The notes: generated by a model from the sequence alone, not told the origin. Shown: positions 9,345-25,251, counted from the first letter of the stretch. The stretch: DNA of 58,359 nucleotides from an uncultured Planctomycetales bacterium (GCA_964400065.1 CAYNSM010000002.1:1-58359); one strand, 5' to 3'. A program made the numbers and translations.

Positions 9345-10478
9345 TCATTTTTTTTTAATATTATTGACCAGTAAAAGATCCTTAAATACAACGCTCATTC
9401 TCTGGGCATAAACATCCAAAGTATAATCTCGTTCGTATTTTGCTCGACCATTTTTGCCCATCATAACACGAGATTGAGTATCTTTGGCTAAGAGTAATAT
9501 TTTTTTTGCCAAGGTCACATCATCACCTTTAGGAAAAAGTAAGCCGGTTTGCCCATCATCGACAATTTCCGGTATCGACCCTTCAACTGAAGCAACAACC
9601 GCACGGCCCTCAGCCATCGCGTGCAAAAGAACCAAACCAAAAACATCCCGCAACGTCGGAAAAATATAAATATCACTTCTACGAAAATATTCGGTCCGTT
9701 TTTCCTCATCCCCGACATAACCAACATACTCAAAATGAGATTCCAACTTTTTGCCCTTGATAAAATCCTGCATTTGTACGATAAACTCCGGAGACTCAGC
9801 CGGACCAGCAAAAGTAAAATACACATTCGGATTTTGCTCGATCACCTTTGGCATAGCCTGTAAAGCGACCCAAATCCCCTTGGACTTTTGTAGAAAAGAA
9901 AAAAACAGCACCTTGATTTTTTTATCCGATGGTTGATGCAAAAGCTGCGGCAAAAGACCCGCCGAATCGGCTACTGCGCCGGGAACCGCATAAACCCGAT
10001 CCGTATCCATTAACCCAAAATAAACTTTACGCGTCAGCTCACCAAGAACAATACTTGCGATCATACATTTTAACATCAAGCGGATCAAGAATTTATAAAG
10101 CCCCGTTGAAGAATCATAAAGTTCACGTACATACTGACCCATATCATGAAGAACAACTTTACAACCCAAAATCCGCGCGCTCATGCAGAAAACAAAATCT
10201 TTTAAAAATGGCAATTTGTCAAAACTTATCGCGTAAAGAACATACTCTGGCCGTTTGACAAGAAGAAGACCAACAAATTGAAAATAATACTGAATAAATT
10301 TAAAAAGCTTGGCAGCTGTTATTTTTTTGTGCTTCTCATACGACCAAAACTTCATATTAAAAAAGATAACATCAAATTCCTGTACAAAGCGTGATTCCAT
10401 AAGCGCCTTGTAAAGCATGCTGTGACCAAAATTCGGCGGAGGAAGTATTCCGCAAATCAAAATTCTTGTTTTTTTCAT
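9345..10478 (-). CDS. glycosyltransferase family 4 (GT-B, Glycos_transf_1)
   Basis: 377 aa. The C-terminal FGLVLLHAMAEGRAVVASVEGSIPEIVDDGQTGLLF region is typical of GT4 enzymes. It begins 26 nt downstream of the FHA gene stop. Confidence 0.85.
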   Translation of the reverse strand: MKKTRILICGILPPPNFGHSMLYKALMESRFVQEFDVIFFNMKFWSYEKHKKITAAKLFKFIQYYFQFVGLLLVKRPEYVLYAISFDKLPFLKDFVFCMSARILGCKVVLHDMGQYVRELYDSSTGLYKFLIRLMLKCMIASIVLGELTRKVYFGLMDTDRVYAVPGAVADSAGLLPQLLHQPSDKKIKVLFFSFLQKSKGIWVALQAMPKVIEQNPNVYFTFAGPAESPEFIVQMQDFIKGKKLESHFEYVGYVGDEEKRTEYFRRSDIYIFPTLRDVFGLVLLHAMAEGRAVVASVEGSIPEIVDDGQTGLLFPKGDDVTLAKKILLLAKDTQSRVMMGKNGRAKYERDYTLDVYAQRMSVVFKDLLLVNNIKKK

Positions 10479-10504
10479 AACAGCTCAATTCCTTCTTCCA
10501 GTTG

Positions 10505-10849
10505 CTAAACGATGTCCATCAAAGACTTGGCGTCATACAGGCCATCTATGATAAAAACCACCAAATCCGTCGCCCCAAAACTTAACATCGTGCGATTTTC
10601 CAACTTCACATTGCCCAAAATGCGGACTTTGTTAACATGCGTTCCATTGGTGCTGTTTAAGTCCTTGACAAAACAGGCCTCTTTTTCCCAATAAACAACC
10701 GCGTGACTGCGTGAACAAAACTTATCATAATCAATACGAATGTTTGCTTCTTGACCCCGGCCAATCAAAACAGGACAATCAGCTTTCACAAAATATTTAT
10801 GCCCTTTTAAAGGCCCGGTTTTAACAATCAAACAAATTGTTTTATTCAC
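10505..10849 (-). CDS. FHA domain-only protein (phosphothreonine-binding module)
   Basis: 114 aa with a GTG start overlapping the kinase stop (GTGA). The conserved FHA positions are present: IGRG (Gly-Arg), SRSH (SxxH) and STNGTHVN (Asn-Gly). Confidence 0.85.
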   Translation of the reverse strand: MNKTICLIVKTGPLKGHKYFVKADCPVLIGRGQEANIRIDYDKFCSRSHAVVYWEKEACFVKDLNSTNGTHVNKVRILGNVKLENRTMLSFGATDLVVFIIDGLYDAKSLMDIV

Positions 10850-11910
10850 ATTATGATGCCTTTCCTCCAGCTCTCCAAGAAAATATTGTAACGCTCATAA
10901 AGAATTTTTTGTTTTTGCTGCGGCAAACTCTTAAAAATCGCTTCCATTGCTTCAATGGCTTTTGGCAAATCACGGTATTGCTGCCCTAAAACAAGAACTT
11001 CATTAATGCGTTTTTCCAAAACACAATCCTCGGAAGCGCTATAATTCTCAAGAGCACCCAAAAATTCTCCCGCATCAGAATACCGTTTAAGAGTGTCATT
11101 TGCTAAAGATTTAAGTACAATCGCATCTAAGTGCGCATCGATACAAGAATTAAACGTCGATGGCGGCTGCGCGGGAAAACTGCGCGCCTTACGTATCGCA
11201 CGCTCAATATCTTTACTATCCTTATATTTGCCACTTTGTGGAATTTTAAACGGGGCAATGCCGGTAAGCATAATATAAAAAATCATTCCCGCTGAATAAA
11301 CGTCACTGGCAGGCGATTTATAATTCCAAAAACCTTCCGGAGCCATATATGCAAGCGTACCGGCGGAATCGGCAAGCTTTGTCAATGGGTCTACATGTTT
11401 AGCCTGTCCAAAATCTGATACCTTAACGATGAAATTCTTTCCGGTTAAATCAATCATAATATTTTGCGGCTTGACATCACGATGAATAACCGGCGGAAAA
11501 AAATCGTGAGCTTGTGCTAATCCGCGACAAATCATCTTTTGAATCTCAAGAGCCAAACCAAAATCAAGCCGCACTTTTTTGCGGATATATGCATCAAGAG
11601 TACCGTGTGGGACATATTCCATAGCGACATAAGCAACACTCTTGCCGTTCAAATCAAAATAATTGGCCTCAAAAACACGCACAACATTCGGATGCGTGAT
11701 CTTTGAAAGAATGACCGCCTCATTTAAAAAATCACCAGCTGTCTTTTCAGGAATCTTTTCCGGATGAAAAACCTTAAGCGCCTGTATCCCTAAAAATTTA
11801 TGCCGAACTTTATAGACAACACCAAACGCTCCTTCACCTAAGACGCTTTCTATAGTGTACGTATCACGGATTAGCGTATATTGCGGTAAAAACTCAAAAT
11901 TATCGGACAT
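10846..11910 (-). CDS. Hanks-type serine/threonine protein kinase, soluble
   Basis: 354 aa. G-loop LGEGAFGVVYKV, ALKVF lysine, catalytic loop HRDVKPQNIM, DFGQA and YMAPE. No TM segment. About 70 aa of helical C-terminal tail. Confidence 0.92.
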   Translation of the reverse strand: MSDNFEFLPQYTLIRDTYTIESVLGEGAFGVVYKVRHKFLGIQALKVFHPEKIPEKTAGDFLNEAVILSKITHPNVVRVFEANYFDLNGKSVAYVAMEYVPHGTLDAYIRKKVRLDFGLALEIQKMICRGLAQAHDFFPPVIHRDVKPQNIMIDLTGKNFIVKVSDFGQAKHVDPLTKLADSAGTLAYMAPEGFWNYKSPASDVYSAGMIFYIMLTGIAPFKIPQSGKYKDSKDIERAIRKARSFPAQPPSTFNSCIDAHLDAIVLKSLANDTLKRYSDAGEFLGALENYSASEDCVLEKRINEVLVLGQQYRDLPKAIEAMEAIFKSLPQQKQKILYERYNIFLESWRKGIIM

Positions 11911-11921
11911 GATTTATACTT

Positions 11922-14417
11922 TCAACTTTTCTTTCTCTTGATCCCAGAACGCGTATTGACGGTCCGTGTGATGTGCGCTTGTTCATCACGCGAAATAAGT
12001 TTCCATAATTCAATAGTAATACCCTGTAGAGACTCAGTGTCCTGACGCAACAAAGCGCGCGCACCTTCCTCAAGCAAATCTGTGGCACGCTTCTGATCTG
12101 TGAATCCCTTGAAATCTTTTTGCCGCAACTCCTGAAAAGCGCCAATCCAAAAATCTTTTTGCCTAAATAAAATTTCCCATTTCAGATCATTAATATCTTC
12201 CAACACTTTATTCAAACGTTTGCTGTCATTAAAAATGATAGCCTTATCAGCATCTTTCTTTAGCAAAGCCAACCGGTCGGCATATTCAGGATTTGCACCA
12301 AAGTTTTCGACGATATCACTCGCGTCAGCCAAACGATCCCTATAATCCTGTAACAATGCCGGCCAAAGCACCATATTCTCGGCGGCATCCAAATATTCCT
12401 TTAATTCCTTAATTCTGCGATCCGCTTTTTCAACCGCAATCACATCCCCACCACCAGCAGCGGTAATTTCGCGCCCAATTTCTGCAAAACAAGTATTAAC
12501 CAAAACGACAACTTCAGCCAAAGAAATTTTTAAACCGACGGCCTTTTGCTCCAACTGTTTCCAGCGAACCTCTTGACGCTCAAGAATCAGAGAAAAATCC
12601 TTAATATCCGGCAACGGCGAAGTCATATTAGGAATTTTCATTGAAAACTTCTGGTCTAATACCGGAATAAAAGCTTCAGCTGAAACACTGCGCGACTGAT
12701 CAACAAAAATCGTAACTTCAACGTCCGAGTTAACGGGAATTTTCCGTCCAACATCCGTCCCCCTAATAACCAAAGTCCCCAAATGACGATTTAATTCAAA
12801 GCGGTCGCTCTCACCTTCGCGCACGGGAATCTCAATAGCTTCTTGGTCCTGCCCCGGATGAATGTCTTTGGCCGCATGATATGTATAAGAAGCTTTTACC
12901 GGTAAAGAAACGCCTTTATTGAGTAATCTATCAAAATTCCCGTCGTGCAATTCCACTCCAATAGAACGCGCCAATGGTGGGGCGCCGACGGACATCCCCT
13001 GATTGATCGAAAAAGAATCACGATCAACCGGCAACTGATTGCCGTTTTCATCAAACAAAACGACTTCAAAAGTATTAACGCGATTAGCCCGCAGATGAAG
13101 TGTTGTAAAAAAAGTATTATTCTTAATCTCAAGCATGCTGCTTTGCCAATCACCCGAAACGCTTCGAATTTGCACCTTAATACCCGGCGATAAAGTTTGC
13201 GTAAATATTTTTCCAGCTACACTAGCTTCCAAAGCTGTTGTCATCGGCTCATAGTTCAATTCCAAATTAACCAACCGATTGTCGTTACAAGTCGAGGCTA
13301 AACCAAGCAACTGAGAAGCAGCATAAATCGCCGCACCCTGAGCTACAACAGTCATCGGATCTACCGAATAATTAATCGGGATGTGGAACTCATTTTTTAG
13401 CCGTTCCCGAATATAGGGGATCTGTGTCGGACCACCGACTAGAATCAAATGTCCTATATCTGAGGACAAGAGTTTTTGATTTTTCAAGAGATTACGAAAA
13501 AGTCGAATACTTTTTTCAACATCTTCTTCAATCACAAAGTTTAACTGTTCTCGGTTAAAAGGGATACAAAAGCTAACAGATTTGCCATCATGATCTTTAA
13601 GGCTTTCCATTTCTTCAACGATAATTTCTGTCTTGTCATTTTGGGAAAGATTGATTTTCGCCTCCTCCGCCGCATATTTAAGAACAGCATTAAGCAAGCC
13701 GTAACAGGTTGTGCGCCCCAGATTCGGCAAGTTATACATTTGACGCAATTGCGGATAAATAATTTCCTCGACGATGCGCCAATCAAAGTCACCGCCCCCC
13801 AAATAATTATCGCCGCCATGATCAACAACAACCAAGTGCCCCTCACGCGACGACAACAGTGCCACATCAAAAGTCCCGCCACCTAAATCATAAACAATCC
13901 AGTAGCCTTTGGGCATTTTTTCCATAAAGCCATACGCAATAGACGCAGCGATCGGCTCCTGCAGAAGAGGCGCAAACTCAATACCAGCCAATTTTGCGGC
14001 AGCTGCCGTAGCTTGCGATTGAGTCATTTCAAAACAGCAAGGAACAGTAATAACCGCGGCGCTTAAATCCGGTTCGTTTGGCAGACGCAAACCAACGGTG
14101 GCCTTGAGATCCTTAAGAACTTCAGCAGATAATTCTTCAGGCTTTAGTACACGCCCAGAACGAACAAAAGTTTTCGTCTGGCGAGTACCCATAAGGAGTT
14201 TAAATGCAGAGAATGTATTTTGACTGTCAACATAAAGACGACTATAGGCGCTTTGCCCAACAATAATACCACCTTTCTCGTCAATGCGCACAACCGAGGG
14301 AGTAATTTCACTTTGCTTAAAATTTTTCAGTACCTTGACCTGCCCGTGCTCCATAAGCGCGATCGCAGAATTGGTCGTTCCAAGATCAATGCCAAAATCA
14401 ACAGTTAGCCGGCTCAT
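11922..14417 (-). CDS. atypical Hsp70 family ATPase (831 aa)
   Basis: ATPase motifs FGIDLGTTNSAIA, VITVPCCF, IVYDLGGGTFDVALL and LILVGGPTQIPYI are intact. SBD-beta-like PLARSIGVELHDGNFDRLLNKGVSLPVKAS is present. It carries extra internal and C-terminal sequence relative to DnaK. Confidence 0.9.
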   Translation of the reverse strand: MSRLTVDFGIDLGTTNSAIALMEHGQVKVLKNFKQSEITPSVVRIDEKGGIIVGQSAYSRLYVDSQNTFSAFKLLMGTRQTKTFVRSGRVLKPEELSAEVLKDLKATVGLRLPNEPDLSAAVITVPCCFEMTQSQATAAAAKLAGIEFAPLLQEPIAASIAYGFMEKMPKGYWIVYDLGGGTFDVALLSSREGHLVVVDHGGDNYLGGGDFDWRIVEEIIYPQLRQMYNLPNLGRTTCYGLLNAVLKYAAEEAKINLSQNDKTEIIVEEMESLKDHDGKSVSFCIPFNREQLNFVIEEDVEKSIRLFRNLLKNQKLLSSDIGHLILVGGPTQIPYIRERLKNEFHIPINYSVDPMTVVAQGAAIYAASQLLGLASTCNDNRLVNLELNYEPMTTALEASVAGKIFTQTLSPGIKVQIRSVSGDWQSSMLEIKNNTFFTTLHLRANRVNTFEVVLFDENGNQLPVDRDSFSINQGMSVGAPPLARSIGVELHDGNFDRLLNKGVSLPVKASYTYHAAKDIHPGQDQEAIEIPVREGESDRFELNRHLGTLVIRGTDVGRKIPVNSDVEVTIFVDQSRSVSAEAFIPVLDQKFSMKIPNMTSPLPDIKDFSLILERQEVRWKQLEQKAVGLKISLAEVVVLVNTCFAEIGREITAAGGGDVIAVEKADRRIKELKEYLDAAENMVLWPALLQDYRDRLADASDIVENFGANPEYADRLALLKKDADKAIIFNDSKRLNKVLEDINDLKWEILFRQKDFWIGAFQELRQKDFKGFTDQKRATDLLEEGARALLRQDTESLQGITIELWKLISRDEQAHITRTVNTRSGIKRKKS

Positions 14418-14845
14418 GTGCTGACCTTATTGGACTTTTGTATTTTCCCTTGTCCGACAATGACTTCGCCCTGAAAGATCTGGACACCATTAGAACAAAT
14501 AGAAGGCTTTATAGTTTCGATAACACGGCAAACACCTGCGGGAAGGTCATCAACTTCTTCAATATAAATTGCTTTTAAACTACAGCCATCAATATAAATC
14601 TCACCCCTAGGATCATGAATTTCAATATTATATTTTTCAAAAACATGACGCATCCGTTGCATTTGATCAGCAAATGCTTTTTGCGCATCTTTACTTAAAA
14701 AAGAACTCAACTTGCCAAAACGCTTTTCTAAACGCCAAAACTCGACGGCCATCTCAACAAAGAAATCCAAATGGGCTGACTTTTCTTGATTCATAACTTT
14801 CTTACGATTAATGTCTCTCCTTAGTCTAGCGTGCGAAACGTTCAT
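14414..14845 (-). CDS. short GrpE-like putative nucleotide exchange factor
   Basis: 143 aa, or 126 aa if ATG 14794 is the start. The N-terminal half is helical. The C-terminal IEIHDPRGEIYIDGCSLKAIYIEEVDDLPAGVCRVIETIKPSICSNGVQIFQGEVIV follows the GrpE beta-domain pattern (G..fDP..H.A....G.V..V...GY...g.viR.A.V.V). The gene sits between the J-like and Hsp70 genes. Confidence 0.55.
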   Translation of the reverse strand: MNVSHARLRRDINRKKVMNQEKSAHLDFFVEMAVEFWRLEKRFGKLSSFLSKDAQKAFADQMQRMRHVFEKYNIEIHDPRGEIYIDGCSLKAIYIEEVDDLPAGVCRVIETIKPSICSNGVQIFQGEVIVGQGKIQKSNKVST

Positions 14846-17021
14846 TGTAAGACATAATCATATCTTGCTGACGCTTAAATTCGTCCTGATACTGTTGATA
14901 CTTTTTTTGGGATATTTCAATCGCCTGATTTTGTTCACGAACCAAATCATTATGCTCGTTGACCCAAAAATTATACTCAGGACTATCCGGATTTGTCCCA
15001 ATCTTATTGTCCAAACGGTTAATCGACGACTGGCGAACCTCGTTTTCACGCCGCAACATTTCAATCTCAGTTTCCATACCTATGATCTTTTCTTTATGTT
15101 GTTGAATTTGTGCCTTAACCTGCGCCGCTTCTTGAAGTAAAACAGCATCCCCAGTGGAAACAGGCATCTCCACAACAACAGGAATCATGTTTTCTCTGGG
15201 CGTTTGGGCTTGCACCTGTGATGGGACAATTGCTGGAACAACAGCAATAACAGCCGGTGCAGCTTTCATTAAAACCGACCGTCCATTTGCTAGAAAACTT
15301 GACTGCGAAGCAATATTCTCTTGCAAAGTCTTTACATTTGTAGTTCGCAAAGGTTCTTCTTGCGATGAAAAAACTTTAGAAATAACATCCGTCGGCGGAA
15401 TAGGCGTTTTTGATGAAAGCTCAATCGCCGTCCAGACCGAAAAGACCGATGCAGCAACAAGAATAAGTCCGACAACCCATGCAAAAACTGGTTTTCGCCT
15501 TGAATCTTTAATAATACGAGGCTTAGCAATTTCACATTCGATGCCCTTCATCCAGTCGCGTTTAACACTTTCTAATTCTTCTTTAAAAGCATCATTCTTG
15601 GCCTCGACCGCCCAATCAATCGCTTCTTTCATGATGCTTTGCGCCTGTCCATAGGCCTGGTACTTATTATGGACTTCAACAGAAATCAATTTCAATTCCT
15701 TAGCCACAAGCTCGCGCAAAATCATTTGCAATTTTTCCGTCATAAAAGCTTCACCCGTCGAAAAAACGGACTTAACGTTATGGATATATTGTTCCTTAAT
15801 ATTTAATATCTCCTCTAACGGCGCGCTGTCATTGAGGGGGTTAATCAGCTTAGTCGCTTCATTACTATATTGTTCAATCGCATCTGCGGCGATCCGTTGC
15901 GCATCTTTTTCACACTCCATTTTTAAAGCGTCTGAATACAAATTCCTGTAAGCCTCATTCATACTTTCCAAAGCACCTAAAACATCGCCGCTTTTATTTA
16001 ATTTCCAGGACAATTGGTGAAACGATTTGGCAATTTTTTCGCGCGAAACGCCAAAATCCGTCATCCCATTGCGGTCTACAATACTGCAATCTTCAATAAA
16101 GGGTTTAGCGCTATCACGATATTTATAAAAGAGGTTTTTGTACAAAGCCCCATCTGCTTTATCCTCGGCAACTTTTCTTTCACGGACAAATTCATCGCAA
16201 AGTAAGTTGATACTTTCAATACGCGAATTAAGAACAGCGTTAAGACCTGACTTATAAAGATCGACCGGCATATCAGCATTTTCAAGAATTTCGATATGCT
16301 TATCTAATATCGACAAATCACGATTTCCCAAAGCTTTAGTCATAAGGAAAAAATGCGCAGAAAGAGCATTATTAAGCGCACTTTCCTTGATTTCATCCAT
16401 GGAAATATTTTGCACACGCCGATCTTGCATGCCATCAATACGCTTTTTAACCACGTCCCAAAAATTTTCGTTTGCGTGTAAAAAATTAAAAATCCGCAAA
16501 ACTACCGCCCAATTTTCTGGACTCTTAGACATATTCTCAAAAAGGACAATAACCTGTTCGTCCTGCGATATCAGTTCATTTCGTAAGAGGATCGATTGAA
16601 AAAGGACAAAAAGATTATGCAAAGCCGTTAAAGCTTCTGACGTCGTTAATGCAAAAATTTTCGGCTCATAAAGCTGATCAACAGTCAGCCCGCCAGCCTT
16701 GAGCCAAATATCAAACGCCACTTGAAACCGGCTGTCACATAAAGCCTGAACGGCCTGCGCGTCACATTCTGATTGCAGCCAGAACCAAGACAATTCCTGT
16801 TTAATGCGGCGTACTGGATCTTCCAAACGCTGAACAGCGCTGGCAATATTCTCCTCGCTACGATCGAGTGGCCCTAACCACACAAAATCATGTTCATATC
16901 CACCATCAAAATTGACTGATTTCTTTACTTTAATTTCATTAGCCCGTGCCACAATCTGTGAAGTCGTCGCATTAGTCAAAAGCCCCAAAACCCTAAACGC
17001 ATTATTCTGATATAGATTCAT
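14826..17021 (-). CDS. membrane-anchored J-domain-like protein (no HPD) with an extracytoplasmic coiled coil
   Basis: 731 aa with ATG 17021 and SD GAGGAG. The N-terminus AFRVLGLLTNATTSQIVARANEIKVKK...LEDPVRRIKQELSWFW resembles J-domain helices but lacks HPD. A single TM helix spans residues 511-534, preceded by KDSRRK. The C-terminus is Q/E/K/R-rich and heptad-like. Confidence 0.6.
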   Translation of the reverse strand: MNLYQNNAFRVLGLLTNATTSQIVARANEIKVKKSVNFDGGYEHDFVWLGPLDRSEENIASAVQRLEDPVRRIKQELSWFWLQSECDAQAVQALCDSRFQVAFDIWLKAGGLTVDQLYEPKIFALTTSEALTALHNLFVLFQSILLRNELISQDEQVIVLFENMSKSPENWAVVLRIFNFLHANENFWDVVKKRIDGMQDRRVQNISMDEIKESALNNALSAHFFLMTKALGNRDLSILDKHIEILENADMPVDLYKSGLNAVLNSRIESINLLCDEFVRERKVAEDKADGALYKNLFYKYRDSAKPFIEDCSIVDRNGMTDFGVSREKIAKSFHQLSWKLNKSGDVLGALESMNEAYRNLYSDALKMECEKDAQRIAADAIEQYSNEATKLINPLNDSAPLEEILNIKEQYIHNVKSVFSTGEAFMTEKLQMILRELVAKELKLISVEVHNKYQAYGQAQSIMKEAIDWAVEAKNDAFKEELESVKRDWMKGIECEIAKPRIIKDSRRKPVFAWVVGLILVAASVFSVWTAIELSSKTPIPPTDVISKVFSSQEEPLRTTNVKTLQENIASQSSFLANGRSVLMKAAPAVIAVVPAIVPSQVQAQTPRENMIPVVVEMPVSTGDAVLLQEAAQVKAQIQQHKEKIIGMETEIEMLRRENEVRQSSINRLDNKIGTNPDSPEYNFWVNEHNDLVREQNQAIEISQKKYQQYQDEFKRQQDMIMSYNERFAR

Positions 17022-17060
17022 CTCTCAAATCTCCTCTAACCTCTCGCTATACAAAAGTAT

Positions 17061-17093
17061 ACATATATATGTACCATCTCGCACACATATATG
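17061..17093 (-). promoter_or_regulatory. two AT-rich palindromes in the leader of the J-like/Hsp70 module (candidate operator/promoter region)
   Basis: ACATATATATGT (17061..17072) and CATATATG (17086..17093) are each perfectly self-complementary and share the CATATATG-type core. They lie in the 77-nt gap 17022..17098. I could not pair a convincing -35/-10. Confidence 0.25.
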
Positions 17094-17098
17094 CAAAT

Positions 17099-19734: not shown

Positions 19735-21486
19735 TTAACCTGCACTATCCTTACCATGATATATTTGATTTTCCAAAGAATCCAAATACGCCAGCGTCAT
19801 ACCAAAAAAAGCCCAAAAAAAGATTGCGTTATGCGGCAATTCTAAAAAAACAAGAAAATTGCTGACCACAACCCAATAAACCAAGCACGCTATTAAAAAT
19901 CCACCCCAAATCGAACGTTTTTTTAAAAAACGCATCGTCATATTAACCAAACCCCCAAAAACAAAAATCACGCAGACAAACCCAACTAAACCACCCCTAT
20001 AAATCATGTGCACAAAAGAATTATGCGGAGTAATCCAACCATCCCGAGTCCATTCCGTTTTAGCCCAATCGAGTATCTCCATAGACACAGACCGCTGCGG
20101 CTGTCCAAAACTGATACCCCAAAACCATGCTTTTTGTTGCACAAAATCCCTAATCATATCCCGCCAAATAAAAACACGAAAGAAAATATTATTGTAGGCA
20201 ATATCTAATGAACGATACGAGTTGGTTGTCGTTTCACTTTTTCGGACAGGTTGGATAAAGAATTCATCGATATTTTTTATCTTCACATTTAAATTGTCCT
20301 TAACTTGTACCTGATTACTACCAATTGTGCTACGGGATATGGTTTTAACCGGTTGCGTTATTTGCGTGACTGGGCTCTCAGAAGAAACACTTGTACTGGC
20401 CAGATTTTTCGCAAATCTTCCTTGAGATGTTTCCTGCAATATTTCTTGCGATGGTTTTTCGGGTGATTTTTGCAAAATCGAAGGCACTACATTCTCTGGG
20501 ACTTTTATCAAACCTGGTTTTTCAACTGAAACTGTAAAAGTTGAAAAATTTTTGGCATTGTGCGAAACGCTTACCATGCTTCTAAATTTCTGTGTCCTAA
20601 TATTCTCATGATAAATTTGGACATCCAGAGGTCTTAAAACATATCCTTTCTGCTGTCGTTGAATTTGTGCATCCAACTGTTGATACTGTTTGCGTAATTC
20701 ATAAAAGGTCGTCATCGACCTAAGCATATTTATATCTCCGAACTTAAACAGGACCAGCAAAAAAAGAACCGCCAAGAAAATTAACCCCACTAGCTTAACT
20801 TGCCAGCGCGCTTTTAACATTCCAAAAAGAAAATATACTGCCAAGAAAATAACCATGCCACCGATCCCAACCATATGCGAACGTCCGTTCCACCAAAGTA
20901 CGTGAGAATATCCAACATAAAACATACAAAGCAAAATTCCAATTAAAGAAAAAATCCGCGGACGCAAGCGCAATACTAAACCCAGAGCAAGCATAAAAAA
21001 AGCTATTACAAAGTAATCGTTAACTCTTAGTAAGAAAAGATTAAAGAATAAAAATACCAATAAAACCGATCTAAACAATCCAGTAAAAATATTTTTATCA
21101 AAAATCACGTATCCAACAAAGAAAAAAACAGGATAATAGAATAAAGCAGCGTTACGCAAAGCCAGCGGGCCGCCAAATTTATAACCCAAATACGCCTTGA
21201 CTAAAACCCAAAAGAAATATAACGCAATAGCCGCAACTACCTTAAAATTAACACCTTCCCTACACCCACTAAAATAGCCAGCCATCCAGATCATGCAGAA
21301 AGAAAACAAAATTTCACCAACAAAAATCGGGAAATCAAGAAACGAGAACTGAATATGCATCTCAGCAAAATCAGAAGTATAAAGAGAATACAAATAACAA
21401 AAAAGCGCAACGATAAAAAAAACCGTTCTCTTTACAAAAATCCGACTAAAGCTTTGACTGATCTTCAATATGAGTTTGTAAAACAA
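19735..21486 (-). CDS. second Wzy_C-like (O-antigen ligase/polymerase family) membrane protein with a large S/T/Q-rich loop
   Basis: 583 aa. The start is TTG 21486 or TTG 21468 (TTGA overlap); there is no early ATG. Multiple TM segments. PHNSFVHMIYRGGLVGF matches the HN...E/G.G motif of the family. A roughly 200-aa hydrophilic loop spans about residues 255-470. Confidence 0.6.
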   Translation of the reverse strand: MFYKLILKISQSFSRIFVKRTVFFIVALFCYLYSLYTSDFAEMHIQFSFLDFPIFVGEILFSFCMIWMAGYFSGCREGVNFKVVAAIALYFFWVLVKAYLGYKFGGPLALRNAALFYYPVFFFVGYVIFDKNIFTGLFRSVLLVFLFFNLFLLRVNDYFVIAFFMLALGLVLRLRPRIFSLIGILLCMFYVGYSHVLWWNGRSHMVGIGGMVIFLAVYFLFGMLKARWQVKLVGLIFLAVLFLLVLFKFGDINMLRSMTTFYELRKQYQQLDAQIQRQQKGYVLRPLDVQIYHENIRTQKFRSMVSVSHNAKNFSTFTVSVEKPGLIKVPENVVPSILQKSPEKPSQEILQETSQGRFAKNLASTSVSSESPVTQITQPVKTISRSTIGSNQVQVKDNLNVKIKNIDEFFIQPVRKSETTTNSYRSLDIAYNNIFFRVFIWRDMIRDFVQQKAWFWGISFGQPQRSVSMEILDWAKTEWTRDGWITPHNSFVHMIYRGGLVGFVCVIFVFGGLVNMTMRFLKKRSIWGGFLIACLVYWVVVSNFLVFLELPHNAIFFWAFFGMTLAYLDSLENQIYHGKDSAG

Positions 21487-23588
21487 ATTTTATCCTTGCC
21501 CCAAAGTTGGGCATACTGATCTGCGGCATCAGATAAAACCGTCTGACGCGATAACCCTGCGTTAAGGCCATCTAAAAGCCACTTAAGATAATTGCCCATA
21601 CGCTCTGCAGCACGTCCGTCACGGAAAGGGTCAACCTGATCCAAAAAAGCATTACAATTTCCTATTGAGACTTTTGCGCCCGGTTTTTCAAAAAAATCGC
21701 TACATCCTTCCCACAAAGTGTCTAGATCCTGAAAAACGACTTTTCCCAAACCATCTTTATAAAATGGGCTGACAGGCCAACCTTCCGCATCCAGAAATAT
21801 GGTTGAAGCTCCCGCCAAGGCCGCTTCAACGCCAGCAGAACCAGCACTCAAGCATTCATGAATAGTTAAGTCGGCAGCCATCGCAGCCAAAGCCGGCGGA
21901 TACATCCCCTGTAAAGAACCTCCAGACAAAACCATGCAACGGCCTGTTTTTTGTAAATCATCGAGCATATTTGCCACCCGACCCAATCGGCGACGTAAAT
22001 TTGAAGGTGCTTTTGGTTTAAAAATAATTCCGTAACGGGAATCTTTTAAAACTTTTTCAATAAGATAGGCATAATTCTTTTGTGTAAAATTATGCCCGGT
22101 AAACCATCTTCCATCGTCTAAAGTGTTTTCATCTAAAAAAGAGATAATCCTCTCAGCGCCATTCTTTCTTAAAGAAAGAGCTATCTGCTGCGCTTTTTCT
22201 TTCAAATATGAGAAACGAAAATCCCCTAAATATCCAGTTACCACCTGATAAGCAATATCGGAACGGTTAGCCTTTTCAACACTAAAATTGTTTTTATTAT
22301 AACAAAAAAGCACATCTGCAACGACCGTCAATTCCCTGGTTGGGGACGTTTCAAAAGCACGCTGATAAATTGTTGTTATCCCGCCAAGACTCCCAAGCGC
22401 ATCCATCAGAGGAATATGTTTCGCATCATATTTATACCAGTGTGTATATAAACGGATATTGCCCTCTTCAAAAAGATCCTTCCAATACCCAAACTGACGA
22501 TTATATTCAAATGTTTTTGCACGCAAGACAGAAAACTCGAAAGAATCTTTTTTGTCCTCCGGCAAAGGGACACTCAAATGCCAGTCGTTAGAGACTAACC
22601 AAGGGGCATGAATAGGCACTTTGTCCAAAGACAAACAGCTGGCTCTTGAAAAACGAACAAGCGCTGAAATACGCTGTTTTTGCATCTCCATCCACTTTTT
22701 CTCATCCAAAGGATCCTGAGAAAGACCAAAAAGAAGCTTAATGTCTTCACCTCGTAATTGTGATTGTTGATAAAAGAATAGGTCCGAGTACGTATCCTTT
22801 CGCTCTAAATTCAAATGCCCGTAATACTCCACCCCCAAAGTATATTTGACATCGCCTGTAAACTCCTTTCTTTTTGAATCAACATTCGGTTGAGATACTT
22901 TTCTAAAAAGTCTTCTTAAATTTCTCACCACAAAAGTTCCCTGATTAACATAACGCGCCAAAAATTGACGGACAATTTTTTTCAAATCAAAAAAAATATT
23001 TTTAAAAAACGCACCAAAAATCAAATGAACATCAAATTCCAACGCATATTCCCGCAAAATTTCCGGCCAATTCCTTTTTCTTAAAAACAACCCAATACTG
23101 GTCTTTTCATCTTTCAAATGCCATCGGCTGATATTTATAAGTGCCAGCGCATGCATAAACTGACAATGCCGATTAAGAGTCGTAAAATCAAACTCCATAA
23201 TGTCTTTAGCTAAATAATCACTTAAATGAAACGATCCGTGAAACAAGCTGATATAGTCTTGAAAAATTTTATCTGCAATAATCTTATCCTGAATCTGCGC
23301 CAAATCCTGATAAGCCAACCTTAAACGCAAAGAAAAATCCTGCTGATCCCTTAAATCAGATATCTCAAAATCCATAACACGAACTTGCCATTTTACAAAT
23401 CCGGAAAGCCACCGAGCAAAACACAAACTCAAAAAAGTCGCATCAAAAACATAAATGATATTTTTTGATAGACGTCCATTCCTTTTGTATTCCCGATAAA
23501 CAGGCAAAATATCAAAGAACAAACTTTTAAGATTCAATAATTCGACGAACAAAGAAACGGATTTCAACCCGGCTGCTTCGAATTTCAT
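21465..23588 (-). CDS. hypothetical protein, possible GT-B-like transferase C-terminal domain
   Basis: The track start 23636 is TTG. ATG 23588 lies 10 nt after the upstream stop. 707 aa, soluble. The only hint I see is the C-terminal GGSLQGMYPPALAAMAADLTIHECLSAGSAGVEAALAGASTIFLD, which resembles the nucleotide-sugar-binding half of capsule/teichoic-type GT-B enzymes. Confidence 0.35.
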   Translation of the reverse strand: MKFEAAGLKSVSLFVELLNLKSLFFDILPVYREYKRNGRLSKNIIYVFDATFLSLCFARWLSGFVKWQVRVMDFEISDLRDQQDFSLRLRLAYQDLAQIQDKIIADKIFQDYISLFHGSFHLSDYLAKDIMEFDFTTLNRHCQFMHALALINISRWHLKDEKTSIGLFLRKRNWPEILREYALEFDVHLIFGAFFKNIFFDLKKIVRQFLARYVNQGTFVVRNLRRLFRKVSQPNVDSKRKEFTGDVKYTLGVEYYGHLNLERKDTYSDLFFYQQSQLRGEDIKLLFGLSQDPLDEKKWMEMQKQRISALVRFSRASCLSLDKVPIHAPWLVSNDWHLSVPLPEDKKDSFEFSVLRAKTFEYNRQFGYWKDLFEEGNIRLYTHWYKYDAKHIPLMDALGSLGGITTIYQRAFETSPTRELTVVADVLFCYNKNNFSVEKANRSDIAYQVVTGYLGDFRFSYLKEKAQQIALSLRKNGAERIISFLDENTLDDGRWFTGHNFTQKNYAYLIEKVLKDSRYGIIFKPKAPSNLRRRLGRVANMLDDLQKTGRCMVLSGGSLQGMYPPALAAMAADLTIHECLSAGSAGVEAALAGASTIFLDAEGWPVSPFYKDGLGKVVFQDLDTLWEGCSDFFEKPGAKVSIGNCNAFLDQVDPFRDGRAAERMGNYLKWLLDGLNAGLSRQTVLSDAADQYAQLWGKDKICFTNSY

Positions 23589-23598
23589 GCTGGACTCT

Positions 23599-25251
23599 TC
23601 ATTTAGGTGAAACTTTGATGAAACTTCGCATCCCAAGAATTTCTTTTAAAATCCTTTTTTCCGGAGCTTTAAAAGATATCGGAAACCCGTCAACCGATAA
23701 CTTTCTAATACCTGCGATCAAATCCAACTTATTGAACTTAACAAGACCGCAGGTTCTCAGACGTAAAATAACTTTCTGCGATGGAATTCTTTCCTTTACG
23801 TAGCGGAACAAATCACTAGGTGGACTACGATCTTGACCAGTCGTCGAAAAATACATCCGGTCACGGAATTCATAATGATCTGTATACAAATAATAGACAT
23901 CCCCTGATTCGCTTGAAAGAATGCGAGCAAGTAATTCCTCTATTTTTTCGGGATCCTGCGTAGGGTTAACAACATACGCACGCGAAATAAGCGATCCACC
24001 CCCGTTAAGCCCTAAATCGCTGGCATAAACCAGAAGCAGATCATTTTGCTTTAGATTTTTGTTTAGCCAAGCGATGGGAACACGGATATTGCTGCGCTCG
24101 CAATAAGCATTAACCATAAATAAACCAATATTAAAAAAAATAAAAACCGCGATTATTCCATAACGAAATTTCTCAGAAATTTCAGGACGCAAAAGCATTT
24201 GGGAGAATCCCAAAACACTCATCATTACAGAAATATAAAAAAACCGAGAAAAGAATATATGATTGTGCGGATTAAAAAGGCCGATACATATCCCGGAAAT
24301 AATACCTGTAAAAAATAACCACGAATAAAAATCCCAGCCTCTACTCGTTTTCAGGTCTCGAACAACAAAACCTAAACCCAAAAAACAAACATTAAGCGCC
24401 AAAACGTAGCGCAGTATTCCAGCCAAATTATCCCAGTACGTCACAAAAGTCCGCCCCATCGTGCGATGCTTAACATCAACAACCAACTGGCCCATAATCA
24501 AATCTAACAAAAAAACAATAAGAGGCGCGGCAACCACAATTATACCCCCTAAAAAGACTTTTGTTTTAAAACTGAATTTTTCATTAAATTTCCCGAAGAG
24601 ACTTCTCGTTTGAGGCAATGTTAAAAGGATCCCCAAAAAGTAAATTGCCACATGCTGCACCTGCCAATGATCAATGGTCGGTAAAATAAGCGCCGTAAAA
24701 CTAGCTAATAAAAATCCACATCCCCAAACACCCTTGTGTTTTTCAAAAGCAACAAGAGCTTCCCAATAAAAGACAATGCTTAAGATCATCAACCATCCCA
24801 ACGGGGCATAAAATCTGACATATACTGATTGTTCAAACACAAACGCTTGGCCAAAAAAGAAAATAGCGGCAAAAGATACCGCCTTCCATGAGGCTTTAAG
24901 ACGCAAGCAAATATAAAATGCAAAAGTTGCAAACGTCAGCAATACAGAAATAAGTGGAATCACCCGAAAAGCCAGAAGCGACAATCCCGTTATTTTATAA
25001 ATAAGGCTTGTTAAATACGTGATCACAAGCCCACGCGTATACGTCCCTGGGATAATACGCCCTTCATCAAAAGCCCATTGGCTGTATTGACCAGTCTCGA
25101 CAAGCCCTTTTCCCGTCGAAAAATGGACCATTTCATCTCCCCATCCCGTAAATTGTTTCGCGCAAATAAACCAAACAAACAAAAATAAAGCCATGATCCC
25201 AAGCGTTAAATAAAAATAAGGACTTTTGATTTTACTAGTTACATCATTCAC
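23599..25251 (-). CDS. GT-C fold glycosyltransferase (PMT / ArnT-like, PMT_2 type)
   Basis: Many TM segments. The first loop motif GWGDEMVHF resembles the DE(V)HF motif of protein O-mannosyltransferase/ArnT-like enzymes. Start is uncertain among TTG 25317, ATG 25302, and GTG 25251. I chose GTG 25251 because it has the best SD (GGGGAG, 7 nt upstream). Confidence 0.65.
   Translation of the reverse strand: MNDVTSKIKSPYFYLTLGIMALFLFVWFICAKQFTGWGDEMVHFSTGKGLVETGQYSQWAFDEGRIIPGTYTRGLVITYLTSLIYKITGLSLLAFRVIPLISVLLTFATFAFYICLRLKASWKAVSFAAIFFFGQAFVFEQSVYVRFYAPLGWLMILSIVFYWEALVAFEKHKGVWGCGFLLASFTALILPTIDHWQVQHVAIYFLGILLTLPQTRSLFGKFNEKFSFKTKVFLGGIIVVAAPLIVFLLDLIMGQLVVDVKHRTMGRTFVTYWDNLAGILRYVLALNVCFLGLGFVVRDLKTSRGWDFYSWLFFTGIISGICIGLFNPHNHIFFSRFFYISVMMSVLGFSQMLLRPEISEKFRYGIIAVFIFFNIGLFMVNAYCERSNIRVPIAWLNKNLKQNDLLLVYASDLGLNGGGSLISRAYVVNPTQDPEKIEELLARILSSESGDVYYLYTDHYEFRDRMYFSTTGQDRSPPSDLFRYVKERIPSQKVILRLRTCGLVKFNKLDLIAGIRKLSVDGFPISFKAPEKRILKEILGMRSFIKVSPK

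Follow-up and report, generated by a model that had tools for sequence, protein, structure and literature searches.

A mobile five-gene cassette predicted to encode a dedicated, membrane-tethered Hsp70 system with a Ser/Thr kinase and an FHA protein

The stretch of DNA analysed here, 58,359 nucleotides from an uncultured bacterium deposited under Planctomycetales (CAYNSM010000002.1; the whole stretch is called the window below), carries five adjacent genes on its minus strand between positions 10,505 and 17,021. In transcription order, these genes, designated A to E, encode a J-like membrane protein, a GrpE-fold protein, a long Hsp70, a Hanks-type Ser/Thr kinase and a forkhead-associated (FHA) protein. 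The names of the homologues of window proteins place the lineage in Candidatus Omnitrophota. We show that the five genes constitute a single inherited and horizontally mobile unit that is widely distributed. It is likewise well supported that at the core of this cassette lies a dedicated Hsp70 machine, which is tethered to the membrane and equipped with an exchange factor of its own and a J-like adaptor that lacks the HPD tripeptide. Concerning the biological role, we tentatively favour conflict or envelope surveillance, for instance an abortive response to a phage or another invader, while giving this reading slightly less than an even chance of being right.

All five open reading frames (ORFs) were found on the minus strand at the places where an earlier, purely sequence-based annotation of the window (the original prediction) had put them. 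Gene A (14826..17021; 731 aa) codes for the bitopic membrane adaptor, gene B (14414..14845; 143 aa, or 126 aa if counted from Met18) for the GrpE-fold protein and presumed exchange factor, gene C (11922..14417; 831 aa) for the long Hsp70, gene D (10846..11910; 354 aa) for the soluble Hanks Ser/Thr kinase, and gene E (10505..10849; 114 aa; GTG start codon) for a protein that consists of an FHA domain only. The junctions had been described correctly in three cases, i.e., the ATGA overlap between B and C, the 11-nt gap between C and D, and the GTGA overlap between D and E. The overlap of 20 nt claimed for A and B, in contrast, holds only if B starts at its first ATG (14845), which overlaps A and has no Shine-Dalgarno sequence. 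An AAGGAGA motif is located about 20 nt 5' of the ATG of Met18 (14794), and B is annotated from Met18 in close relatives. With the latter start, A and B would be separated by approximately 31 nt; the start region 14794-14845 is ambiguous.

The gap of 77 nt 5' of A (17022..17098, minus strand) contains conserved promoter- and ribosome-binding-site-like blocks together with a Shine-Dalgarno sequence, as had been predicted, which is of the GGAG type. The blocks AAGTAAATTTGC, ATGGTAnATATATAGnTATAC and AGGAGA are conserved across seven loci of the window's clade, and the first two may represent the promoter. The terminator scan flagged an AT-rich imperfect hairpin at 17060-17095 as terminator-like (15 pairs, only three of them G-C). 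We rejected it as a regulatory element because the relatives do not conserve it.

Evidence that the five genes belong together comes from their recurrence. In total, 58 loci were collected, of which 41 came from metagenomes, 9 from a set of 185,579 species genomes, in which the cassette is thus rare, and the others from context look-ups. The order A-B-C-D-E was kept in all 58 loci: 35 were complete, 21 were broken by contig ends, and two lacked B only, with a 96-nt gap in its place. The recurrence of the gene order in the 35 complete loci is more than chance would produce, and the question whether the five genes also travel together outside this genome, on which the original prediction had made itself dependent, is clearly answered in its favour. 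The five cassette genes were the only ones common to all loci. Furthermore, the components diverged in parallel, with identities of approximately 30% for A, 34-46% for B, and approximately 50% for C, D and E. The genome matches comprised metagenome-assembled and single-amplified genomes of Omnitrophota, bins labelled Planctomycetales, Planctomycetia or 'uncultured bacterium', and one Atribacterota.

The family extends well beyond these loci. An exhaustive profile search with the A family returned 3,280 sequence clusters of 50% identity at E ≤ 1e-3, 1,333 at E ≤ 1e-10 and 133 at E ≤ 1e-30. Many members of this wider family carry sensor-like N-terminal fusions, such as a receiver domain (REC) plus Zn ribbon, Sel1 or ankyrin repeats. 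The gene context was determined for four distant members. Three of them, L061, P0308 and L064, show the permuted order kinase-A-small protein-Hsp70-FHA, supplemented in P0308 by an extra TPR gene and an M50 peptidase gene. The fourth, L065, contains A, the small protein and Hsp70 only, followed by a TPR-OmpA protein. The small protein of L061 is a homologue of B (Prob 98%, E 1e-14), and the L061 Hsp70 is co-linear with C, with 37% identity over 823 aa. The permuted orders and the lone triad of L065 indicate that A, B and C form the core, to which the kinase and the FHA protein are a frequent accessory pair.

Long Hsp70s of 830-841 aa that are related to C over their C-terminal halves also occur on plasmids of cultured bacteria, in clusters whose genes are annotated merely as 'Hsp70 family protein' or hypothetical. 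The protein encoded on the conjugative plasmid pSDM007 of Pseudomonas hygromyciniae (L063 5010-9990) is 31% identical to C over the full length, which is the sole full-length co-linearity shown among the three plasmids. Its partners, proteins of 706 and 117 aa, were considered as homologues of A and B and rejected, since the homology was not significant. On a Shewanella xiamenensis plasmid (L066 6475-17266), the cluster is Tn7-like cargo with genes for ATP-binding, peptidoglycan-binding and RDD proteins, and its small protein resembles B only weakly. The cluster on pHALHY02 of Haliscomenobacter hydrossis (L062 5193-12718) includes a 'septum formation initiator', an AAA ATPase and TerB, and adjoins a BREX system.

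Protein C appears to be an ATPase-competent Hsp70. Its nucleotide-binding domain (NBD; residues 1-368, positions 13314-14417, minus strand) matched the Pfam HSP70 model (PF00012) with an E-value of 3.5e-80, and all catalytic motifs aligned with those of DnaK in the PDB. This actin-like domain has the phosphate-1, phosphate-2 and adenosine motifs and the equivalents of the catalytic residues K70 and E171; nearly all of the 42 family members retain GIDLGTTNS, FK..MG, QEP, DLGGGTFD and VGG.T..P. A profile of the C-terminal half matched the substrate-binding domains (SBDs) of DnaK and mortalin (E 5e-6 to 1e-3; DnaK residues 398-601), which assigns residues 484 to ~690 (12348-12968) to the β-domain and lid. 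With this profile, a word-indexed search found at least six proteins, and scans of the loci were more productive. Two segments are additional. An insert of approximately 115 aa (residues 369-483; 12969-13313) between NBD and SBD, reaching from the end of the NBD at about residue 368 to the RSIGVE motif at 484, replaces the short interdomain linker, and a helical tail of approximately 140 aa (residues ~691-831; 11925-12347) follows the lid. Thus, the predicted Hsp70 with intact ATPase motifs and extra segments stands. The protein nevertheless fails the DnaK equivalog models, with 267 bits versus a cut-off of 648 for NF001413 and 261 versus 823 for TIGR02350.

The position of DnaK R167 is occupied by proline in 42 of 42 C sequences (APLLQEP, the Ala being replaced by Ser in three). 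In the DnaK-DnaJ complex, R167 is the contact for the Asp of the HPD motif. On this basis, the canonical interface between J-domain and Hsp70 appears to have changed on its two sides together in the cassette, because A has no HPD and C has lost the arginine. The insert of C harbours a further conserved element: YxPMT (residues 389-394; 13236-13253) is present in 42 of 42 Hsp70s of the Omnitrophota type, and YxPMTT in 38 of 42. As a candidate phospho-acceptor or FHA ligand, the YxPMTT motif is a weak lead; its counterpart in the permuted-order locus L061 reads YEPMG.

For protein B, searches of Pfam and NCBIfam (GrpE, PF01025 included, at E ≤ 1), PADLOC and the PDB sequences gave no match, and the family of 378 members is entirely without a name. 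An AlphaFold2 model built from an alignment of 42 sequences reached a predicted local distance difference test (pLDDT) score of 88.8. It consists of a long helix (residues 3-49), a second helix (52-71) and a β-domain with strands between residues 74 and 133. The 12 best Foldseek matches in the PDB were all GrpE or GrpEL1, with E-values from 6e-5 to 0.12 and a TMq of up to 0.61; ranks 1-11 had a probability of 1.0. According to this model, B has the GrpE fold, and it is presumed to be the nucleotide-exchange factor for C.

The B family varies in two respects. In the distant clade, B is longer (~170 aa) and has an extra N-terminal region with the motif YFFxDRxxFERC, which the window's clade lacks. 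In a sub-lineage of the HK-STAS-OMNI-1 type (L002 12182-12276; L003; L014), B has been cleanly lost, leaving a 96-nt gap between A and the Hsp70 gene, and A, Hsp70, kinase and FHA are kept at 66-87% identity. This clean loss with the other four genes intact implies that B is dispensable in that sub-lineage or supplied in trans.

Protein A was equally silent in Pfam, NCBIfam, PADLOC and the PDB sequences; a word-indexed search found 33 homologues. According to the alignment, its first ~85 residues (16767..17021, minus strand) are very strongly conserved and probably form a J-like domain. At the place of the YHPD motif of J-domains, this domain has YEHD, followed by a loop, DFxWxGPLDRSE, that is invariant in the clade. 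The AlphaFold2 model of residues 1-120 (pLDDT 83) retrieved mainly J-domains, which predominated by far among the 40 best Foldseek matches in the PDB, with probabilities up to 0.97 and, for entries of isolated J-domains, target-normalised TM-scores up to 0.67. Alignment of the N-terminal profile with nine J-domains by hhalign, which superimposed helices I-II and III, gave an E-value of 2.4e-4 at a Prob of 44%. The nine sequences had been validated with PF00226. A comparison of the N-terminal profile with the PDB sequences yielded noise only, and the Pfam DnaJ model did not match A. Taken together, we assign the J-domain helical-hairpin fold to the N-terminus with moderate confidence on the basis of the modelled structure. 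The HPD tripeptide is absent from A, where YEHD or YEYD occupies the aligned position, and it was found in none of 25 members sampled across the wider family. The GrpE-like and J-like assignments of the original prediction therefore receive support from structure and from profile-profile comparison. Since Pfam and NCBIfam are blind to both proteins, the calls require methods of this kind.

The J-like domain is followed by a cytoplasmic helical region (residues 86-505; 15507..16766). Of this region, residues ~86-385 are conserved throughout the family and 385-500 are specific to the window's clade. The hydropathy maximum marks a single strong transmembrane segment (residues 512-534; 15420..15488), which is preceded by a basic RRK sequence. 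The C-terminal part (residues 620-731; 14829..15164) is a coiled coil with the conserved motif EYN...N.L...YN, and in distant homologues the C-terminus is extended by LysM. The RRK sequence before the transmembrane helix and the LysM extension suggest an N-in, C-out topology that would place the coiled coil outside the cytoplasm. A second hydrophobic stretch, rich in Ala, Val and Pro (residues 582-600), leaves some doubt about the topology. The architecture originally proposed, a J-like N-terminus without HPD, one transmembrane helix and an outside coiled coil, is consistent with these results. A Zn-ribbon insert, CPxC...CxxCG, is located after the J-like domain in the A homologues P0013, P0015-P0017, P0019, P0023, P0027, P0031 and P0032 (alignment columns ~165-215); the window's clade does not have it.

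An Hsp70, a GrpE-fold and a J-like protein encoded side by side could represent a divergent form of the organism's ordinary DnaK-GrpE-DnaJ heat-shock system. The cassette indeed shares with this system the NBD motifs, the SBD-β with lid and the encoded partners. However, A has no HPD, no G/F region and no Zn finger, and the Pfam GrpE and DnaJ models do not respond. C has lost R167, carries an insert in place of the interdomain linker plus the helical tail, and scores only 261-267 bits where the DnaK equivalogs demand 648-823. No CIRCE element was detected in the entire window with up to three mismatches allowed. Moreover, the cassette is mobile, its presence in only 9 of 185,579 species genomes is at odds with a housekeeping system, and B has been deleted in one lineage. 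We conclude that a heat-shock dnaK operon, which the original prediction had likewise dismissed, is essentially excluded. In the metagenomic locus L040, a second Hsp70 gene (10406-11905; 499 aa) with NBD, canonical linker and SBD-β is located two genes downstream of the cassette. This HSP70 match was rejected as the canonical DnaK of the carrier because the protein is a lidless paralogue.

The remaining two proteins were identified with standard models. Protein D matched Pkinase (PF00069; E 3.7e-46) and contains the Gly-loop, the catalytic Lys, HRDxKxxN and DFG. Gly-loop, HRDxKPxN and DFG are kept in 41 of 41 family members, and D looks like an active Hanks kinase. Protein E matched FHA (PF00498; E 3.7e-17) and contains the GR, SxxH and NG residues. 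Of the 41 members of its family, all have SxxH (SR.HA), 40 have STNGT, and 24 match the strict GR pattern. The kinase and FHA assignments, including the phosphothreonine-binding residues, were thus predicted correctly. In some relatives, the kinase ends at ~295 aa (L011 5406-6275, L012 11409-12293, L017 11377-12267), which indicates that the C-terminal ~60 aa of D are not a conserved part of the system. D also matched the PADLOC models PD-T4-6 (E 2e-55), mad6 and PglW. The PknB model scored equally well, so that the PD-T4-6 match reflects generic kinase similarity. A dedicated phosphatase was not seen in the cassette, which suggests a one-way switch and a cassette suited to a one-way response.

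Among the known systems closest to the cassette, each shares one aspect with it and fails on its defining features. DjlC of Escherichia coli possesses a canonical HPD J-domain, and its partner HscC is not known to need an exchange factor. The likeness lies in a specialised Hsp70 with membrane J-proteins, DjlB and DjlC, encoded nearby; HscC is presumed to act at the plasma membrane, where the tail-anchored DjlC stimulates its ATPase (PMC8215388). Unlike DjlC, A is HPD-less, continues behind its transmembrane helix (512-534 of 731) with an extracytoplasmic coiled coil, and comes with GrpE-fold, kinase and FHA partners. SglK and StkA of Myxococcus xanthus are non-heat-shock Hsp70s affecting exopolysaccharide and fibrils, in parallel with the glycan position of the cassette in the window's clade, and SglK, as a DnaK of the PRK00290 type, is able to complement a dnaK mutant of E. 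coli (PMC4319316, PMC8265645). In contrast, C fails the DnaK models, and a transmembrane J-like partner, a kinase or an FHA protein is not described for SglK or StkA. The gene grpS, which encodes a GrpE homologue, is located next to sglK. A dedicated Hsp70, GrpE and J trio also occurs in the predicted GAP1-N2 conflict systems of Actinobacteria and Firmicutes, which combine GTPases with FNIII-repeat proteins; in a further theme of such systems, a kinase and PP2C come in addition (Kaur et al., 2020; PMC7159879). The cassette differs in that it has no GTPase, FNIII or PP2C, in that the partner is a transmembrane J-like protein, and in that an FHA reader is always present. The gene tables of the loci contained neither GTPase nor FNIII proteins, and the 25 Pfam families that were commonest in 146 non-redundant flank proteins did not include them either.

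With regard to the signalling pair, PpkA-Fha1(-PppA) of the type VI secretion system (T6SS) is an envelope-triggered transmembrane kinase sensor with a phosphatase partner, located within the T6SS cluster. It resembles the cassette in pairing a Hanks kinase with an FHA protein. D is, however, soluble and has no phosphatase at its side, T6SS genes are missing from the window flanks, and E reached only 23 bits versus a cut-off of 120 with the TagH/Fha1-type FHA model (TIGR03354). The abortive-infection systems Stk2 and PD-T4-6 also rely on a Hanks kinase, which serves them as sensor or effector against phages, but they are single-gene systems, and the similarity of D to them is generic.

One more relationship concerned the CnuD proteins of type III CoCoNuT systems, McrBC-associated Hsp70-like proteins proposed to bind RNA instead of serving as chaperones. 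CnuD combines Hsp70 NBD and SBD with a helical extension in predicted defence operons (PMC11090510), and the long Hsp70 of Haliscomenobacter, with genes for an AAA ATPase and TerB behind it and BREX nearby, could be read as a link. However, the ATPase motifs of CnuD are degenerate, and the protein goes together with McrBC and HEPN but not with GrpE, J or FHA partners (PMC11090510). The motifs of C are intact, its GrpE-fold partner argues for a real nucleotide cycle, and no McrB, McrC, HEPN or CSD gene was present in any cassette locus. Hence, a cassette of CnuD kinship is nearly as firmly excluded as a heat-shock operon. The five-component system and the A and B families are not described in Pfam 2025, NCBIfam 2026, PADLOC 2023 or the full-text literature searched, and the expectation that Hsp70, GrpE, J-like protein, kinase and FHA together have no characterised counterpart was borne out within these sources.

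What the cassette does has to be judged from its surroundings. In the window, Pfam confirmed the predicted glycan genes on both sides: dehydratase/epimerase, nucleotidyltransferase and RmlD-like epimerase genes upstream, and GT4, WecG/TagA and Bac_transf phosphoglycosyl transferase genes downstream. Only 26 nt without a terminator separate E from the GT4 gene, which makes a common transcript of the cassette and the glycan genes downstream probable. This arrangement is the basis for a rival explanation, according to which the cassette is a regulator or quality-control device of envelope glycan or cell-wall assembly. The membrane-tethered Hsp70 would serve as chaperone or gate for the cytoplasmic domains of membrane proteins of glycan assembly, and the kinase and FHA protein would tune the pathway. 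Six relatives have the cassette at the glycan-operon position that it occupies in the window. Glycan genes lie on either side in the window, L002, L012, L014 and L015; in L007 (upstream) and L011 (downstream) only one side was recovered because of contig ends. Probable co-transcription with GT4, WecG and WbaP-like genes and the recurring LysM, OmpA and peptidoglycan-binding themes point in the same direction. So do precedents from other Hsp70s, as StkA is a negative regulator of exopolysaccharide, fibrils and social motility depend on SglK (PMC4319316; PMC8265645), and HscC partners the membrane-inserted DjlC (PMC8215388). However, the glycan position is absent from ~45 more distant loci and from all permuted-order relatives, which have unrelated neighbours, and L013, a close relative of the window, already differs downstream. 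The distribution of the cassette is, moreover, patchy and mobile rather than lineage-wide. Control of glycan assembly, as suggested by the original prediction, can thus not be upheld as a general property, given that the position is confined to the window's own clade, and we consider this explanation rather unlikely, though deserving serious attention.

In the more distant loci of the Omnitrophota type, the gene directly upstream usually encodes a small protein with three transmembrane segments, an HTH_17 regulator or another membrane protein. The gene directly downstream belongs to one of several unrelated families, among them Zn-ribbon-RDD, Zn-ribbon polytopic proteins, proteins with an A24 prepilin-peptidase-like motif (recognised by eye), soluble proteins of ~200 aa, and HExxH/Zn-ribbon proteins. 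Recurrent links to the envelope or peptidoglycan, comprising LysM, OmpA, a peptidoglycan-binding protein, RDD and other membrane neighbours, are well supported. Some loci are evident islands of defence or mobile genes, with type III restriction-modification plus Shedu at one and HTH_17 genes plus a PLD-SNF2 helicase at another. Further island neighbours at different loci are a ParB-methylase, an HNH gene, and HNH plus PLD (L064); L061 is accompanied by an integrase, ArdC, nSTAND and a vWA-PP2C-kinase-FHA set. The original prediction had mentioned a conflict module as an alternative. This reading gains ground from the restriction-modification/Shedu, PLD-SNF2 and integrase neighbours as well as from the Tn7 cargo and BREX contexts of the plasmid relatives, and loses some again because defence genes are a minority of the flanks. 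The objection that no effector is present was judged weak, because the kinase itself could be the effector and because variable membrane proteins are encoded directly downstream in the distant loci.

Other neighbours were a PilZ-T2SSE ATPase, an alpha-2-macroglobulin and a giant protein of 2093 aa. The ORF of the latter (L007 3607-9888) contains a NUDIX domain and lies between an epimerase gene and the cassette. Together with the A24-like motif, these neighbours would fit a lineage-specific cell-biology device that has nothing to do with defence or glycan, such as a membrane-associated machine for the assembly or disassembly of surface, attachment or predation structures in ultra-small Omnitrophota, that has spread by ordinary transfer. 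The taxonomic range of the genome matches, namely Omnitrophota, the Planctomycetales, Planctomycetia and 'uncultured bacterium' bins and the one Atribacterota, would agree with such a device. None of these neighbours is conserved, however, and the varied sensor-like fusions (REC, Sel1, Ank) and the related Hsp70s on mobile elements of Pseudomonas, Shewanella and Haliscomenobacter speak against it. We regard this explanation as improbable.

A conflict or surveillance role is favoured because of the patchy distribution, the mobility, the island neighbours and the variable adjacent membrane genes. Several observations weigh against it. One glycan-operon position has been kept across the genomes of the window's clade, in which A and Hsp70 are 58-80% identical; this stable position, with 26 nt to the GT4 gene, would be expected of a housekeeping role in the envelope no less than of a defence gene lodged there. 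Defence-type genes are a minority among the 146 flank proteins, many of which are ordinary (TPR proteins, response regulators, GGDEF proteins, methyltransferases). PADLOC-DB v2 holds no model for A, B, C or E, and the kinase matches generic models only. Relatives of the cassette were absent from the viral and phage collections. B is, as described above, dispensable in one lineage or supplied in trans. Finally, the J-like assignment of A rests on weak values, the E-values of individual Foldseek matches to J-domains being 0.5-4 and the hhalign Prob 44%.

The favoured surveillance role can be formulated as a working model. A would pass the membrane once, with its J-like and helical domains in the cytoplasm and its coiled coil directed toward the envelope. 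It would report the state of the envelope or peptidoglycan and bring the Hsp70 to the membrane. With B resetting it, the Hsp70 cycle might then hold or release the kinase or a substrate of the kinase, thereby acting as a chaperone-titration switch analogous to DnaK-sigma32 or BiP-IRE1. E would read the resulting threonine phosphorylation, and the output could be directed at membrane or envelope targets, unless the kinase itself is the toxic effector. In the Omnitrophota lineage, the cassette would have become fixed inside a surface-glycan operon.

The window as a whole looks like a single, very long unidirectional array of envelope-glycan genes. Among the 55 ORFs listed for positions 1-58359 with a length of 150 aa or more, 51 are located on the minus strand, and the four on the plus strand are short or overlap longer minus-strand ORFs. 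The GC skew is negative in each 2-kb bin (-0.10 to -0.26), and neither tRNA genes nor Rfam matches were detected in the 58 kb. Two ORFs, 19735-21486 (583 aa) and 21465-23636 (723 aa), had no Pfam match at E ≤ 1e-5. The 583-aa protein is polytopic as judged by eye and may be a divergent polymerase or ligase-like protein; its homologue in L002 has a weak Wzy_C match only. L012 and L014 have also conserved the ORF of 723 aa.

Few dedicated Hsp70 systems have an assigned function, HscA/HscB and HscC/DjlC being the examples. The cassette would add to them a system that brings along an exchange factor and a J-like adaptor lacking HPD, and its A and B proteins define families for which Pfam, NCBIfam and PADLOC have no model. 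With R167 replaced and the HPD absent, it could be a natural experiment in the rewiring of the J-Hsp70 interface. The combination of a chaperone cycle with a pair that writes and reads phosphothreonine points to a bacterial equivalent of signalling gated by chaperones, as in BiP-IRE1 or DnaK-sigma32. If the defence role is true, a chaperone-based sensing principle would be added to bacterial immunity. The cassette may even be the founding example of a widespread and so far unrecognised Hsp70-based surveillance class, in which the chaperone senses an envelope breach or a foreign protein and the kinase and FHA protein transduce this signal to an abortive or protective response; we consider this broader proposal speculative and less probable than the surveillance role as such. 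In that case, immune sensing would be the task of a chaperone, within a system that integrative elements, plasmids and transposons carry. Because cultured Pseudomonas, Shewanella and Haliscomenobacter harbour plasmids with related long-Hsp70 clusters, the function can be tested although the organism of the window is uncultured. We regard the cassette as a specialised Hsp70 system with dedicated co-chaperones, and there is a real chance that it represents a new class of chaperone-based surveillance.

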